In this document: positions 13,247 to 59,605 of the stretch, piece by piece
Layout of the letters: the number at the start of each line of letters is the position of its first letter
Numbering within the stretch: position 1 is the stretch's first letter
Source: Escherichia coli
GTDB lineage: Bacteria > Pseudomonadota > Gammaproteobacteria > Enterobacterales > Enterobacteriaceae
Assembly (NCBI RefSeq): GCF_003334255.1
Contig: NZ_QOWU01000015.1
Direction: 5' to 3' (one strand)
Length of the DNA: 64,000 nucleotides
The notes under the pieces: generated by a model
Told to the model about the DNA's origin: nothing
What the model saw: the letters and a program-made list of their open reading frames with translations, nothing else
Databases searched by the model: none
Program-made: the position numbers and the translations under genes

Positions 13247-14437
13247 TTACAGCACCTTATGCGGGCCAAAGCATTCGTAATGAATGTTTTCCTGCTTCAC
13301 GCCCAGATCCACTAACTGTTTCGCGGTAAACTGCATGAAGCCAACCGGGCCGCAGAGATAGAACTGCATTGTCGGATCGCTGAACGCACCTTCCAGTTTG
13401 CTCAAATCCATCAGACCTTCGCTATCAAACTGACCTTTAGCGCGATCGGCTTCGCTCGGCTGACGATACCAGGTGTGCGCGGTAAAGCGCGGCAGTGACT
13501 GCCCCAGTTCCTTAACTTCATCGGCAAAGGCGTGAACATCGCCATTTTCTGCCGCATGGAACCAGTTCACTTGTGCTGTGTGGCCTGCTTTTGCCAGCGT
13601 GTCGAGCATTGCCAGCATTGGCGTTTGACCAACACCGGCAGAGATTAACGTCACTGGTGTGTCATCTGAGACAGCCATAAAGAAATCACCTGCCGGAGCG
13701 ACCAGTTTCACGACATCGCCAAAATTGGCGTGATTGTGCAACCAGTTGGATACCTGCCCACCCTCTTCGCGTTTCACCGCAATACGATAGCCTTTGCCAT
13801 CCGGTTTGCGAGTCAAAGAGTACTGACGAATTTCCTGATGCGGGAAACCTTCCGGCTTCAGCCAGACGCCGAGATATTGCCCCGGACGGTATTCTGCCAC
13901 TGCGCCACCGTCGACCGGCTCCAGTTCGAAGCTGGTGATAAGCGCGCTGCGCGGTGTTTTAGCCACAATGCGGAAATCGCGAGTACCTTCCCAACCACCG
14001 GCTTTGCTGGCGTTTTCGTTATAGATTTCCGCCTCGCGATTGATAAATACATTAGCCAGTACACCATAGGCTTTACCCCACGCGTCCAGCACTTCCTGCC
14101 CCGGGCTGAACATTTCGTCCAGCGTTGCCAACAGGTGTTCACCGACGATGTTGTACTGTTCCGGTTTGATCTGGAAGCTGGTGTGCTTCTGCGCGATTTT
14201 TTCTACCGCTGGCAGCAGCGCAGGCAGGTTTTCAATATTACTGGCGTAGGCGGCAATAGCGTTAAACAGGGCTTCACGTTGATCGCCATTACGCTGGTTA
14301 CTCATGTTAAAAATTTCTTTGAGTTCTGGGTTATGAGTAAACATACGGTCGTAGAAATGGGCGGTTAACTTTGGCCCCGTTTCCACCAGTAAAGGGATGG
14401 TGGCTTTTACTGTAGCGATGGTTTGAGCGTCAAGCAT
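13247..14437 (-). CDS. hmp: Flavohemoprotein (NO dioxygenase), 396 aa
   Basis: [17 protein letters not shown]... globin domain plus FAD/NAD-binding domain; track ORF trimmed to the ATG at 14437. Confidence 0.96.
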
Positions 14438-14463
14438 ATGGTCTTCCTTTTTTTGCATCTTAA

Positions 14464-14486
14464 TTGATGTATCTCAAATGCATCTT
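14464..14486. promoter_or_regulatory. NsrR operator in the hmp promoter
   Basis: Reverse complement is AAGATGCATTTGAGATACATCAA, an inverted repeat about 27 bp upstream of the hmp start. Confidence 0.6.
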
Positions 14487-14634
14487 ATAAAAAATAGCCC
14501 TGCAATGTAAATGGTTCTTTGGTGTTTTTCAGAAAGAATGTGATGAAGTGAAAAATTTGCATCACAAACCTGAAAAGAAATCCGTTTCCGGTTGCAAGCT
14601 CTTTATTCTCCAAAGCCTTGCGTAGCCTGAAGGT

Positions 14635-14650
14635 AATCGTTTGCGTAAAT
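14635..14650. promoter_or_regulatory. PUR-box-like half site upstream of glyA
   Basis: cgtttgcgt (ACGCAAACG on the other strand) about 115 bp upstream of glyA. Confidence 0.35.
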
Positions 14651-14764
14651 TCCTTTGTCAAGACCTGTTATCGCACAATGATTCGGTTATACTGTTCGCC
14701 GTTGTCCAACAGGACCGCCTATAAAGGCCAAAAATTTTATTGTTAGCTGAGTCAGGAGATGCGG

Positions 14765-16018
14765 ATGTTAAAGCGTGAAATGAACATTGCCGATTATGAT
14801 GCCGAACTGTGGCAGGCTATGGAGCAGGAAAAAGTACGTCAGGAAGAGCACATCGAACTGATCGCCTCCGAAAACTACACCAGCCCGCGCGTAATGCAGG
14901 CGCAGGGTTCTCAGCTGACCAACAAATATGCTGAAGGTTATCCGGGCAAACGCTACTACGGCGGTTGCGAGTATGTTGATATCGTTGAACAACTGGCGAT
15001 CGATCGTGCGAAAGAACTGTTCGGCGCTGACTACGCTAACGTCCAGCCGCACTCCGGCTCCCAGGCTAACTTTGCGGTCTACACCGCGCTGCTGGAACCA
15101 GGTGATACCGTTCTGGGTATGAACCTGGCGCATGGCGGTCACCTGACTCACGGTTCTCCGGTTAACTTCTCCGGTAAACTGTACAACATCGTTCCTTACG
15201 GTATCGATGCTACCGGTCATATCGACTACGCCGATCTGGAAAAACAAGCCAAAGAACACAAGCCGAAAATGATTATCGGTGGTTTCTCTGCATATTCCGG
15301 CGTGGTGGACTGGGCGAAAATGCGTGAAATCGCTGACAGCATCGGTGCTTACCTGTTCGTTGATATGGCGCACGTTGCGGGCCTGGTTGCTGCTGGCGTC
15401 TACCCGAACCCGGTTCCTCATGCTCACGTTGTTACTACCACCACTCACAAAACCCTGGCGGGTCCGCGCGGCGGCCTGATCCTGGCGAAAGGTGGTAGCG
15501 AAGAGCTGTACAAAAAACTGAACTCTGCCGTTTTCCCTGGTGGTCAGGGCGGTCCGTTGATGCACGTAATCGCCGGTAAAGCGGTTGCTCTGAAAGAAGC
15601 GATGGAGCCTGAGTTCAAAACTTACCAGCAGCAGGTCGCTAAAAACGCTAAAGCGATGGTAGAAGTGTTCCTCGAGCGCGGCTACAAAGTGGTTTCCGGC
15701 GGCACTGATAACCACCTGTTCCTGGTTGATCTGGTTGATAAAAACCTGACCGGTAAAGAAGCAGACGCCGCTCTGGGCCGTGCTAACATCACCGTCAACA
15801 AAAACAGCGTACCGAACGATCCGAAGAGCCCGTTTGTGACCTCCGGTATTCGTGTAGGTACTCCGGCGATTACCCGTCGCGGCTTTAAAGAAGCCGAAGC
15901 GAAAGAACTGGCTGGCTGGATGTGTGACGTGCTGGACAGCATCAATGATGAAGCCGTTATCGAGCGCATCAAAGGTAAAGTTCTCGACATCTGCGCACGT
16001 TACCCGGTTTACGCATAA
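14765..16018 (+). CDS. glyA: Serine hydroxymethyltransferase (417 aa)
   Basis: [22 protein letters not shown]...; PLP lysine motif [14 protein letters not shown]. Confidence 0.97.
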
Positions 16019-34837: not shown

Positions 34838-35027
34838 CTGTAGATCTCCCATAAGCATAATTGATAAGAATAGCTAAAGTTTGCTCAAGGAAATGGCGAA
34901 GGGAATGCTAATCATCAGAAATGTTGGCAAGCGTCACAGAATTTTTCTCATCTTAAACTGTTCTGACCAGTGGATTAGCATGTCTTAAGGTGGTTTTGTG
35001 AATGATTATCGTGCTAGCGATCATGGG

Positions 35028-35882
35028 TTAGTTCTGCGGATTCAACGCGCTAAGGATAAAGTCCACCATCTGTTCGCGATAAACATCGCCGTGACGATCG
35101 GAAAAAGCATCAATGTGTTCGCCATCCGGGATTAGAATCAACCGTTTTGGCTCTTTTGCCAGGCTATACAACTTTTCGCTGTGCTGCCATGGGATAACGT
35201 GATCGGCTTTACCGTGAATGAGTAAAAGCGGGATCGGGCTGACGCTGGCGATGTAATTTTCGCCACTGTAACTCTCATCAAGTAAGTAGCCACTGCCGGG
35301 GATCATCTGGTTGGCGATGGTTGCATAAGAGGCAAATGTGGAGTCGAGGATCACCGCACGTATGCCTTCACGATCACCCTGACCAATAACAGCAAGAATA
35401 TTCGCCCCGCCAATACTCTGCCCGAACAGCACCAGCCGTTGTGGGTTTACATCACTGCGATGGCGCACCACATTGATGGCGCTTTGCGTATCGTCCAGCA
35501 ATCCGGCCTGGGACGGCGTGCCTTTTGATTTACCAAACCCGTGATAATCAAACATAAAAACGTTGAAATTACGCTCGGGTAACCAACTGACCAGCGGCCA
35601 GTGGGCGGACATATTTCCGGCATTGCCGTGAGCATGAATGATGGTTGCGATAGCGTTGTCAGCAGGGCCCGTCGAAGAAGGAATAAACCAGCCTTGCAGA
35701 CGAGTACCGTCCTTAGCCGTAAATTCGACGGATTCCGCCGACCAGGGGTCGGGACCGTAAAGTTTATCGTCAGGATAATAGAAGAAGTTGATGGCAACGC
35801 GCGGCACTAAATAAACGCAGAAGGCAACAACAAAGAGAATAAACAGAATTTTGAGAACGCGTTTGTTCACTGGCAGTGCCAT
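35028..35882 (-). CDS. yfhR: Membrane-anchored alpha/beta hydrolase of unknown function
   Basis: N-terminal TM helix; GQSIGG nucleophile elbow; start trimmed to the internal ATG. Confidence 0.85.
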   Translation of the reverse strand: MALPVNKRVLKILFILFVVAFCVYLVPRVAINFFYYPDDKLYGPDPWSAESVEFTAKDGTRLQGWFIPSSTGPADNAIATIIHAHGNAGNMSAHWPLVSWLPERNFNVFMFDYHGFGKSKGTPSQAGLLDDTQSAINVVRHRSDVNPQRLVLFGQSIGGANILAVIGQGDREGIRAVILDSTFASYATIANQMIPGSGYLLDESYSGENYIASVSPIPLLLIHGKADHVIPWQHSEKLYSLAKEPKRLILIPDGEHIDAFSDRHGDVYREQMVDFILSALNPQN

Positions 35883-37690: not shown

Positions 37691-37872
<182 letters not shown>

Positions 37873-38538: not shown

Positions 38539-38649
38539 TAAAAAGAATTCAGAATCAGGCCGGAGTGCTAAATACTCCGTAAACACGGTCGTACATCCAG
38601 CCGGTAGCCTGATTCCTTGCATTGAGTGATGTACGGAGTTTATAGAGCA

Positions 38650-45247: not shown

Positions 45248-46024
45248 ATGTCCGAAACAAAAAACGAACTTGAAGACCTGCTGGAAAAAGCAGCAACTGA
45301 ACCGGCGCACCGCCCGGCCTTTTTCCGTACTCTACTGGAATCCACCGTCTGGGTGCCTGGTACGGCGGCGCAGGGCGAGGCTGTGGTTGAAGATAGCGCG
45401 CTTGATTTACAGCACTGGGAAAAAGAAGACGGCACCAGCGTCATTCCTTTTTTCACCTCGTTAGAAGCACTTCAACAGGCGGTTGAAGACGAACAGGCAT
45501 TTGTCGTAATGCCCGTTCGCACGCTGTTTGAGATGACACTTGGCGAAACGCTCTTCCTTAATGCCAAACTGCCAACCGGTAAAGAATTTATGTCGCGTGA
45601 AATCAGTTTGTTGATTGGTGAAGAGGGAAATCCGCTGAGCAGCCAGGAAATCCTGGAAGGCGGTGAATCGCTGATATTATCGGAAGTCGCAGAGCCGCCA
45701 GCACAAATGATTGATTCACTCACCACCTTATTTAAAACCATTAAGCCGGTGAAGCGTGCTTTTATTTGTTCAATTAAAGAGAACGAAGAGGCACAGCCTA
45801 ATTTACTTATTGGCATTGAAGCCGATGGTGATATCGAAGAAATTATTCAGGCGACGGGAAGTGTAGCGACCGATACATTACCTGGCGATGAACCAATCGA
45901 TATTTGTCAGGTGAAAAAAGGGGAAAAAGGAATTAGCCACTTTATTACCGAACATATTGCGCCATTCTATGAACGTCGCTGGGGTGGTTTTTTGCGTGAC
46001 TTTAAACAGAATCGGATAATCTAA
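45248..46024 (+). CDS. sseB: SseB, enhancer of serine sensitivity (start alternatives: GTG 45239 or ATG 45248)
   Basis: MSETKNELEDLLEKAATEPAHRPAFF...; synteny with sseA. Confidence 0.85.
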   Translation: MSETKNELEDLLEKAATEPAHRPAFFRTLLESTVWVPGTAAQGEAVVEDSALDLQHWEKEDGTSVIPFFTSLEALQQAVEDEQAFVVMPVRTLFEMTLGETLFLNAKLPTGKEFMSREISLLIGEEGNPLSSQEILEGGESLILSEVAEPPAQMIDSLTTLFKTIKPVKRAFICSIKENEEAQPNLLIGIEADGDIEEIIQATGSVATDTLPGDEPIDICQVKKGEKGISHFITEHIAPFYERRWGGFLRDFKQNRII

Positions 46025-46028
46025 AATA

Positions 46029-46047
46029 TGCCGCCCAAAGGGCGGCA
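46029..46047. terminator. Short GC hairpin between the sseB stop and the small ORF stop; possible bidirectional terminator
   Basis: tgccgccc-aaa-gggcggca; U-rich sequence follows on the minus strand. Confidence 0.4.
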
Positions 46048-46054
46048 TTCGGGC

Positions 46055-46180
46055 TTACTTGCTGCTCTGAAGGTTGTTAACCACCAGTAAATTGTCGCCG
46101 GAGAGACTCCGGTTATTATTTACCTCGGTTAACAGCGCACCAGAAACAATAAGTACGATACAAAAGCACCGTATCTTCAT
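46055..46180 (-). CDS. Candidate 41-aa small hydrophobic protein (type I toxin-like; possibly the ryfA/timP class)
   Basis: ATG...TAA ORF translating MKIRCFCIVLIVSGALLTEVNNNRSLSGDNLLVVNNLQSSK; hydrophobic N-terminal 17 residues; not in the supplied ORF track (below its size cut-off). Confidence 0.4.
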   Translation of the reverse strand: MKIRCFCIVLIVSGALLTEVNNNRSLSGDNLLVVNNLQSSK

Positions 46181-46310
46181 TGTGCGGTCCATGCGAAGAC
46201 CGCATCACGACAGCACCACTGGCGATATTGCCGCGATAGCAAGCGCTGTGAAACACCTGCATTTACGGCCACGGAACATCCTTTCCTAAAGCCAGCGCCC
46301 GTTTGCGAGA

Positions 46311-46507
46311 CGGCGGAAAGGGCCGCAGTGGATAATACACTAACAGAACAATAATAACTCTCTTTTGCTTGACAAAAAGAGAGTTACTGGCGAGTATTGT
46401 CTCCGCTGAGACGCGCTTGCATTACTACGGTAATACAACCTGCTGGAAAGGCCGCGAACCGGACCAGCAACAAAAAACCGCCTGATTTTGGCGGTTTTTT
46501 GTTTTTT
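46311..46507 (+). repeat. Direct repeat copy 1 of an sRNA-like module
   Basis: Begins cggcggaaagggccg; contains perfect 9-bp-stem hairpin ctctctttt-gcttgaca-aaaagagag with TTGACA in the loop; ends ccgcc..ggcgg plus T-run. Confidence 0.7.
46404..46507 (+). ncRNA. Candidate ~100-nt sRNA 1 (antitoxin-like); predicted, not verified
   Basis: TTGACA (46369..46374), 17-bp spacer, gagtat (46392..46397); Rho-independent terminator at 46478..46507. Confidence 0.3.
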
Positions 46508-46632
46508 AAAGGAAAGTGAATTTACATGTTTAAGTAATATCTTTTACCGGTTAGAATTTTTAATTTTGAGCAGGATTTGTTTATATTTGTCTGAATTCAG
46601 ACTAATAAGCCAGGTTATTTTATTACCGAACA

Positions 46633-46826
46633 CGGCGGAAAGGGCCGGTGTCGATAATACGCTAAATAAACAATAATTACTCTCTTTTGCTTGACAAAAA
46701 GAGAGTTACTGGTGAGTATTGTTTTGCTGTGAAGCACCTGCGTTGCTCATGTAACACAAGTCAACCTGCTGGAAAGGCCGCGAACCAGACTAGCAATAAA
46801 AAACCGCCAAATTCGGCGGTTTTTTA
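46633..46826 (+). repeat. Direct repeat copy 2 of the same module
   Basis: Same start box, same 9-bp hairpin (46680..46705), same gctggaaaggccgcgaacc box, same terminator type; about 322-bp period. Confidence 0.7.
46726..46826 (+). ncRNA. Candidate ~100-nt sRNA 2 (sibling of sRNA 1); predicted, not verified
   Basis: TTGACA (46691..46696), 17-bp spacer, gagtat (46714..46719); terminator at 46804..46825, which also lies just downstream of sseA on the other strand. Confidence 0.3.
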
Positions 46827-55168: not shown

Positions 55169-55231
55169 TCTGTTTTGTCCCTGATTGTTGCTAAAACTCA
55201 TTTTATTTTAAAAAAATGTTACCTTCATCAA

Positions 55232-58376: not shown

Positions 58377-59495
58377 ATGCATAACCAGGCTCCAATTCAA
58401 CGTAGAAAATCAACACGTATTTACGTTGGGAATGTGCCGATTGGCGATGGTGCTCCCATCGCCGTACAGTCCATGACCAATACGCGTACGACAGACGTCG
58501 AAGCAACGGTCAATCAAATCAAGGCGCTGGAACGCGTTGGCGCTGATATCGTCCGTGTATCCGTACCGACGATGGACGCGGCAGAAGCGTTCAAACTCAT
58601 CAAACAGCAGGTTAACGTGCCGCTGGTGGCTGACATCCACTTCGACTATCGCATTGCGCTGAAAGTAGCGGAATACGGCGTCGATTGTCTGCGTATTAAC
58701 CCTGGCAATATCGGTAATGAAGAGCGTATTCGCATGGTGGTTGACTGTGCGCGCGATAAAAACATTCCGATCCGTATTGGCGTTAACGCCGGATCGCTGG
58801 AAAAAGATCTGCAAGAAAAGTATGGCGAACCGACGCCGCAGGCGTTGCTGGAATCTGCCATGCGTCATGTTGATCATCTCGATCGCCTGAACTTCGATCA
58901 GTTCAAAGTCAGCGTGAAAGCGTCTGACGTCTTCCTCGCTGTTGAGTCTTATCGTTTGCTGGCAAAACAGATCGATCAGCCGTTGCATCTGGGGATCACC
59001 GAAGCCGGTGGTGCGCGCAGCGGGGCAGTAAAATCCGCCATTGGTTTAGGTCTGCTGCTGTCTGAAGGCATCGGCGACACGCTGCGCGTATCGCTGGCGG
59101 CCGATCCGGTCGAAGAGATCAAAGTCGGTTTCGATATTTTGAAATCGCTGCGTATCCGTTCGCGAGGGATCAACTTCATCGCCTGCCCGACCTGTTCGCG
59201 TCAGGAATTTGATGTTATCGGTACGGTTAACGCGCTGGAGCAACGCCTGGAAGATATCATCACTCCGATGGACGTTTCGATTATCGGCTGCGTGGTGAAT
59301 GGCCCAGGTGAGGCGCTGGTTTCTACACTCGGCGTCACCGGCGGCAACAAGAAAAGCGGCCTCTATGAAGATGGCGTGCGCAAAGACCGTCTGGACAACA
59401 ACGATATGATCGACCAGCTGGAAGCACGCATTCGTGCGAAAGCCAGTCAGCTGGACGAAGCGCGTCGAATTGACGTTCAGCAGGTTGAAAAATAA
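58377..59495 (+). CDS. ispG: HMBPP synthase (IspG/GcpE)
   Basis: [36 protein letters not shown]... Confidence 0.96.
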
Positions 59496-59605
59496 TAACG
59501 TGATGGGAAGCGCCTCGCTTCCCGTGTATGATTGAACCCGCATGGCTCCCGAAACATTGAGGGAAGCGTTGAGGGTTCATTTTTATATTCAGAAAGAGAA
59601 TAAAC

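Follow-up and report, generated by a model that had tools for sequence, protein, structure and literature searches.

The window, a 64-kb stretch of the Escherichia coli chromosome, carries at its hmp-glyA locus two divergent genes and a compact region between them. On the minus strand, hmp (also hmpA; 13247..14437) encodes the NO-inducible flavohaemoglobin, and on the plus strand glyA (14765..16018) encodes serine hydroxymethyltransferase; both were identified from the list of open reading frames and from an identical E. coli stretch annotated in RefSeq, in which the flanking genes are labelled hmpA and glyA. The gap between them (14438..14764) spans 327 bp with 39% G+C, and the original prediction of a divergent hmp-glyA region of this length is borne out by reading-frame starts at 14437 (minus strand) and 14765 (plus strand), together with the RefSeq names. 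In enteric bacteria, Hmp is the principal enzyme for the aerobic detoxification of NO and contributes to survival inside macrophages and in the urinary tract, which makes its control region important. Control of the hmp-glyA pair has been studied since the 1990s, with work on FNR in 1996 and 2002, on MetR in 1998, on NsrR in 2005 and 2006, and on PurR at glyA in 1990.

The whole gap was found once in each of the 5426 complete E. coli genomes (5426/5426, at least 95% identity), and a 32-bp stretch with the NsrR operator was matched in 5221 of the 5426, with an identity of at least 99% in 5220. No Rfam family was matched in the gap. For comparison across Enterobacteriaceae, a scan of species-representative genomes for the Hmp protein gave 80 loci, which together with the window yielded 79 unique hmp-glyA gaps of 272-346 bp, with divergent gene order in all. 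The protein contacts described below are drawn from secondary citations and from sequence identity with published site lists.

A consensus promoter scan places the hmp -35 hexamer TTTACA at 14506..14511 and the -10 hexamer TAAGAT at 14482..14487, both on the minus strand and separated by an 18-bp spacer; the -35 hexamer is invariant in 79/79 species. The transcription start, marked as experimentally mapped in Fig. S3 of PMC1274295, is the A of TTGAG at 14474 on the same strand, 7 nt past the -10 hexamer and in agreement with the scanned promoter. The resulting 5' UTR is 37 nt long and includes a putative ribosome-binding region, AAGGAAG in the hmp sense (14444..14450, minus strand), which was read from the sequence and in which AAAGG or AAGG is retained by most of the 79 species.

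Lying over this promoter is the NsrR operator, an 11-1-11 imperfect inverted repeat, AAGATGCATTT-G-AGATACATCAA, at 14464..14486 on the minus strand (-12 to +11 of the hmp promoter), which reads TTGATGTATCTCAAATGCATCTT in the window sense and AAGATGCATTTGAGATACATCAA in the hmp sense. The 23-mer is identical, letter for letter, to the hmp NsrR site TTGATGTATCTCAAATGCATCTT in Table 4 of PMC5320621, an NsrR ChIP-seq study of strain CFT073, and Rodionov et al. 2005 (PMC1274295) had already identified its core as the predicted NsrR site of hmp. When compared with AAGATGCATTT-N-AAATGCATCTT, the upstream arm is perfect and the other arm matches at 7/11 positions, and the two arms are self-complementary at 7/11 pairs. 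The 23-bp NsrR palindrome that had been claimed for this region is therefore an exact match to the published site, but a loose palindrome. Its location, given as immediately upstream of hmp, was right, but the operator is not merely upstream: it overlies the start site and the -10 hexamer, and its first five bases also belong to that hexamer.

An exact-seed search of the gap reported no inverted repeat because the palindrome is too imperfect, and a search with the ideal NsrR palindrome and up to 3 mismatches gave no match at the hmp site because that site has 4 arm mismatches; matrix scoring was therefore used, with a leave-one-out palindromic matrix built from the 25 other published sites and with hmp left out. 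The operator is the top match of this matrix in the 64-kb window, at 17.2 bits, a score that lies within the range of the published sites (12-32 bits) and under their median. Since 17.2 bits was equalled anywhere in 5 of 100 random 64-kb sequences, chance would be most unlikely to produce such a match inside a single promoter region of 327 bp. As for occupancy in cells, an NsrR ChIP-seq peak in CFT073 has been assigned to glyA/hmp with 3.8-fold enrichment (PMC5320621). The summit of that peak falls within hmp, some 34 bp from its start and about 70 bp away from the centre of the operator, and is thus consistent with NsrR occupancy of the region while falling short of base-pair mapping. In K-12, hmp is also an NsrR target by ChIP-chip, and it is described as derepressed in nsrR mutants.

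The operator is universal in the family. All of the Enterobacteriaceae gaps (79/79) carry an NsrR site, with scores from 17.2 to 31.7 bits (median 27.2), and its distance to the hmp ATG is mostly 26-28 nt (range 18-39). The run ATAAGATGCATTT, which comprises the -10 hexamer plus the upstream NsrR arm, and the downstream ATACATC are almost invariant in the 79 gaps, and the Klebsiella and Enterobacter operator reads AAGATGCATTTAAAATACATCAT. We considered whether the 23-mer could be a plain core promoter, made up of the -10 hexamer, the discriminator and the initial transcribed sequence, with only an incidental likeness to NsrR sites. The best-conserved arm, AAGATGCATTT, does have five bases in common with the -10 hexamer TAAGAT, as such a reading would have it. 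Conservation nevertheless runs on through +3 to +9 (ATACATC), a mirror of the upstream arm that promoter function does not need; the 23-mer is, moreover, the published NsrR site beneath a ChIP-seq peak, and the same motif occurs upstream of hmp in distant taxa (Rodionov et al. 2005). We regard an incidental likeness as highly improbable, and retain the 23-mer as an NsrR operator.

The site in the window is the known E. coli hmp NsrR operator (Rodionov 2005; Bodenmiller & Spiro 2006; Partridge 2009; Mehta 2015, PMC5320621): its 23 bp, its two flanking genes and its spacing to the hmp start codon are all those described, and it shows no difference. The E. coli ytfE NsrR operator (AAGATGCATTTAAAATGCATCTT) is likewise of the 11-1-11 type, and its upstream arm AAGATGCATTT is identical to that at hmp. 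However, the ytfE operator is a perfect palindrome, whereas the downstream arm at hmp departs from it at 4/11 positions. As a separate observation, the hmp promoter of a Buttiauxella metagenome-assembled genome (L066) has a duplicated upstream NsrR arm (AAGATGCATTAAAAGATGCATATTAAATGCATCAT), which amounts to a 12-bp insertion and an extra tandem half-site.

Downstream of the operator, at 14451..14461 on the minus strand (+14 to +24 of the hmp transcript), lies an extra single 11-bp NsrR-like motif, AAGATGCAAAA. Table 2 of PMC5320621 gives this motif as 'hmp (19) AAGATGCAAAA' with a PatSer score of 5.00, centred 19 bp before the ATG, a distance that agrees with its centre at 14456 in the window. 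Among the 79 species, the 11-mer was found in Escherichia only. A 4-bp CAUC/GAUG hairpin can be drawn in this part of the transcript, and one could thus suppose that the transcribed half of the palindrome and AAGATGCAAAA fold into a regulatory hairpin within the 5' UTR of hmp. Folding of the 5' UTR gave no significant structure, however (MFE -3.4 kcal/mol, z = +0.87, with 167 of 200 shuffles at least as stable), and an RNA element is further opposed by the lack of an Rfam match in the gap. The weak folding and the restriction of AAGATGCAAAA to Escherichia effectively refute an RNA hairpin here, to which we attach next to no probability.

A second recognition element is nested in the NsrR operator. 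The FNR box TTGAGatacATCAA (14464..14477, minus strand; -3 to +11 of hmp) lies wholly within it, and TTGATgtatCTCAA at these positions agrees with TTGAT-N4-ATCAA at 9/10 bases, with a single mismatch (TTGAG-ATAC-ATCAA). The FNR-box-like TTGAT-N4-CTCAA that had been noticed inside the NsrR site is thus present, and it coincides with the published FNR box. The accompanying remark that overlapping control is already known for hmp was also right. An FNR site is attributed to the hmp promoter by Rodionov et al. 2005 and by Myers et al. 2013. Repression of hmp by FNR is described in the literature, and Cruz-Ramos 2002, as cited in other work, reported FNR binding and regulation at hmp. As a member of the class of start-site-overlapping FNR repression sites (TTGAT-N4-ATCAA), the 9/10 box at -3 to +11 is placed such that a bound dimer would block initiation. 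It differs from that class in having no reported in vivo occupancy by ChIP-seq, in being lineage-restricted and in being nested in the operator of another repressor.

These differences raise the possibility that the FNR-like box does not work in the cell, that NsrR alone controls hmp from this place and that FNR effects are indirect or seen in vitro only. Myers et al. 2013 reported a predicted FNR site and FNR-dependent expression at hmp, yet found no FNR ChIP-seq peak there. Boxes with one mismatch are not rare, with 6 seen in the 64-kb window and 2.25 (about two) expected by chance. The box is also poorly conserved: in contrast to the universal NsrR site, an FNR box with one mismatch at most was found in 11/79 gaps only, all from Escherichia or some Citrobacter, and the other gaps have 2-7 mismatches in the FNR register; the FNR site is not conserved across orthologous promoters. 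Rodionov et al. 2005 likewise found the FNR site at hmp to be poorly conserved. Against these points stands the observation that an FNR box with up to one mismatch occurs only at hmp among the 26 published NsrR sites. Because the ideal NsrR palindrome itself has 4 mismatches in the FNR register, and hmp alone of the 26 sites has 1, the box probably does not arise simply from the NsrR motif. In addition, the box is perfect in one Escherichia species among the 79, and hmp was the sole peakless FNR-dependent operon with a predicted site in the data of Myers et al., who cite earlier work as supporting FNR binding to hmp. The missing peak would equally result if bound NsrR masked the FNR site. Taken together, we think it unlikely that the box is inactive in the cell.

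The departures of the hmp operator from a ytfE-type palindrome at positions 12, 22 and 23 are those that create the FNR half-sites. At the same time, the E. coli NsrR match is the weakest of the 79. Its low score is mainly due to a G at operator position 14, with lesser costs from G12 and A23. We examined the idea of a trade-off, in which E. coli would have weakened its NsrR site to gain an FNR site, and found partial support only. NsrR score and FNR mismatches are correlated across the gaps (Spearman 0.47, uncorrected for phylogeny), but G14, the largest E. coli penalty, fits neither the NsrR nor the FNR consensus and so favours neither protein.

Another proposal is that an old NsrR operator, common to the whole family, has recently been overlaid by the FNR box in Escherichia and Citrobacter, and that NsrR normally masks FNR in vivo; the overlay would have arisen through changes in the spacer and in the two outermost bases of the downstream arm. 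We consider this possible, though we would not yet favour it. If it were true, masking by NsrR would account for the lack of an FNR ChIP-seq signal at this 'silent' site, and two NO-sensitive Fe-S repressors would compete for one hmp operator, with a balance tuned by lineage.

Farther from hmp, the middle of the gap contains a strongly conserved block at 14548..14584 that includes two TGAA units 22 bp apart. Two MetR sites have been reported in the literature for the hmp-glyA intergenic region, and we assign candidates to both. Candidate site 1, GTGAAAAATTTGCAT (14548..14562, plus strand), rests on the consensus ATGAA-N5-TTCAT and on conservation; the shorter pattern TGAA-N5-TTCA matches it with one mismatch at 14549..14561. 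Candidate site 2, CTGAAAAGAAATCCG (14570..14584, plus strand), is a weaker match with its centre 22 bp from that of site 1, and its putative assignment follows from the two-site layout of LysR-type regulators and from the literature report. The TGAA and TGCAT of site 1 are conserved across the family, as is, strongly, CTGAAAAGAAATCC of site 2. The 13-mer pattern is not enriched in the 64-kb window (30 matches, 27 expected), and the candidate coordinates were therefore inferred from conservation. As a candidate placement based on sequence, 14548..14584 fits both reported MetR sites, for which the original prediction had given no coordinates. A further, partly conserved block (TTTATTC...CAAAGCCTTGCG, 14601..14621) is situated between these MetR candidates and the PurR box.

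On the glyA side, the gap contains a PurR operator, or PUR box, AGGTAATCGTTTGCGT, at 14631..14646 on the plus strand. The original prediction had placed a PUR-box half site here; an element is indeed present, but it is a complete 16-bp operator. The PurR ChIP-chip study of Cho et al. 2011 lists AGGTAATCGTTTGCGT as the glyA site in its Table 1, with MG1655 coordinates that convert exactly to 14631..14646, and RegulonDB grades the glyA PurR site as 'confirmed'. Scored by matrix against ACGCAAACGTTTGCGT, the operator reaches 21.7 bits in a leave-one-out test, which exceeds the training-site median; 1 of 200 random 64-kb sequences attained this score. Its right half, CGTTTGCGT, is consensus and its left half, AGGTAAT, is degenerate. 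A PurR box was found in 79/79 gaps, mostly about 117-119 nt from the glyA ATG. Published NsrR and PurR sites thus coincide exactly with the positions at which the two operators are placed here, rather than mapping elsewhere in the region.

The glyA box resembles the PurR operators of the pur regulon (ACGCAAACGTTTGCGT) in its 16-bp length, its right half, its ChIP-chip signal and its above-median score. It differs from them in its degenerate left half and in its position, since in E. coli it lies about 119 bp upstream of the glyA start codon and upstream of the candidate core promoter elements, not over them. A promoter scan of the plus strand gave TTGTCA at 14655..14660 as a candidate -35, which is 98% conserved, and AATGAT at 14677..14682, at a spacing of 16 bp, as a candidate -10, which is 71% conserved. 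An alternative -10 is the -10-like hexamer TATACT at 14688..14693, which is invariant across the family or reads TACACT. TATACT and TTGTCA do not form one promoter because they are 27 bp apart, and at the right distance from TATACT only the weak -35 CTGTTA is found. The glyA core promoter is therefore ambiguous between TTGTCA/AATGAT and TATACT, and the invariant run TGTCAAGACCTGTTATC may contain more than a -35.

Just past the invariant TATACTG, the glyA leader contains a small stem-loop, GUCC-AACA-GGAC (14704..14715, plus strand). When sequences were folded one by one, it formed in nearly all of 68 unique enterobacterial leaders. In several genera, compensatory changes convert the GUCC/GGAC stem to GCCC/GGGC, and in two the stem is deleted. 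RNAalifold, run on the aligned glyA leaders, did not detect it. Should glyA be transcribed from near 14700, the stem-loop may be a 5'-terminal stabilising hairpin. The glyA ribosome-binding site, AGGAG at 14754..14758 on the plus strand, was read from the sequence and lies in the invariant block GTTAGCTGAGTCAGGAGATGCGG.

We conclude with high confidence that the gap is a shared hmp/glyA control region, consisting of an NsrR operator over the hmp promoter with a nested FNR box, a candidate MetR block, and a PurR operator for glyA. The sigma-70 hmp promoter TTTACA-18-TAAGAT, with its start at 14474, is overlaid from -12 to +11 by the NsrR operator. In the simplest mechanism, which is established in the literature, NsrR, an Rrf2-family Fe-S repressor, would when bound cover the -10 hexamer and the start and exclude RNA polymerase. 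According to the literature, nitric oxide damages the NsrR cluster, upon which NsrR would leave and hmp would be derepressed. FNR, which is active anaerobically, could repress hmp from the same place through the box at -3 to +11, and NsrR and FNR would have to compete rather than co-bind because their sites overlap completely. The MetR sites in the middle of the gap would couple hmp and glyA to homocysteine through this LysR-type regulator, and the PurR operator would confer purine repression on glyA.

The central content of this region is already known, as all of it is in the literature. What our analysis contributes is only comparative and mildly new: NsrR and PurR sites occur throughout the family, FNR boxes are lineage-restricted, and E. 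coli has the poorest NsrR match, observations that sharpen the question of competition between NsrR and FNR. The raw sequence alone sufficed to recognise real operators, and no new biology was added.

Several observations were made elsewhere in the window. The PurR matrix identified a strong PUR box, ACGAAACCGTTTGCGT, at 4637..4652 (23.2 bits; scored on the minus strand). It lies upstream of purL (CDS from 4711) at a distance of 59 bp, is the known purL PurR operator and was included in the training list. A weaker PUR-like box, TTGAAATCGTTTGCAT (12781..12796, minus strand; 11.5 bits), falls within the 3'-terminal part of glrR, with glnB some 70 bp downstream of the box; glnB has been reported as a PurR target but was not detected by PurR ChIP-chip (Cho et al. 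2011). The second-best match of the NsrR matrix, TCATTTTATTTTAAAAAAATGTT at 55198..55220 (15.8 bits), is located at the ndk stop codon and the ndk-rlmN gap; it is AT-rich, falls inside the range of random maxima and is probably due to chance. Rfam matches at gathering score comprise GlmY (8932..9079), naRNA4 (37751..37822), the iscRS stability element (38539..38648), ryfA (46023..46326), IS128 (46458..46666) and sroE (59495..59586), all of which are expected in this part of the E. coli chromosome. Finally, yfhR (34894..35729 in the window) is annotated as frameshifted in the reference strain NZ_CP025916.1.
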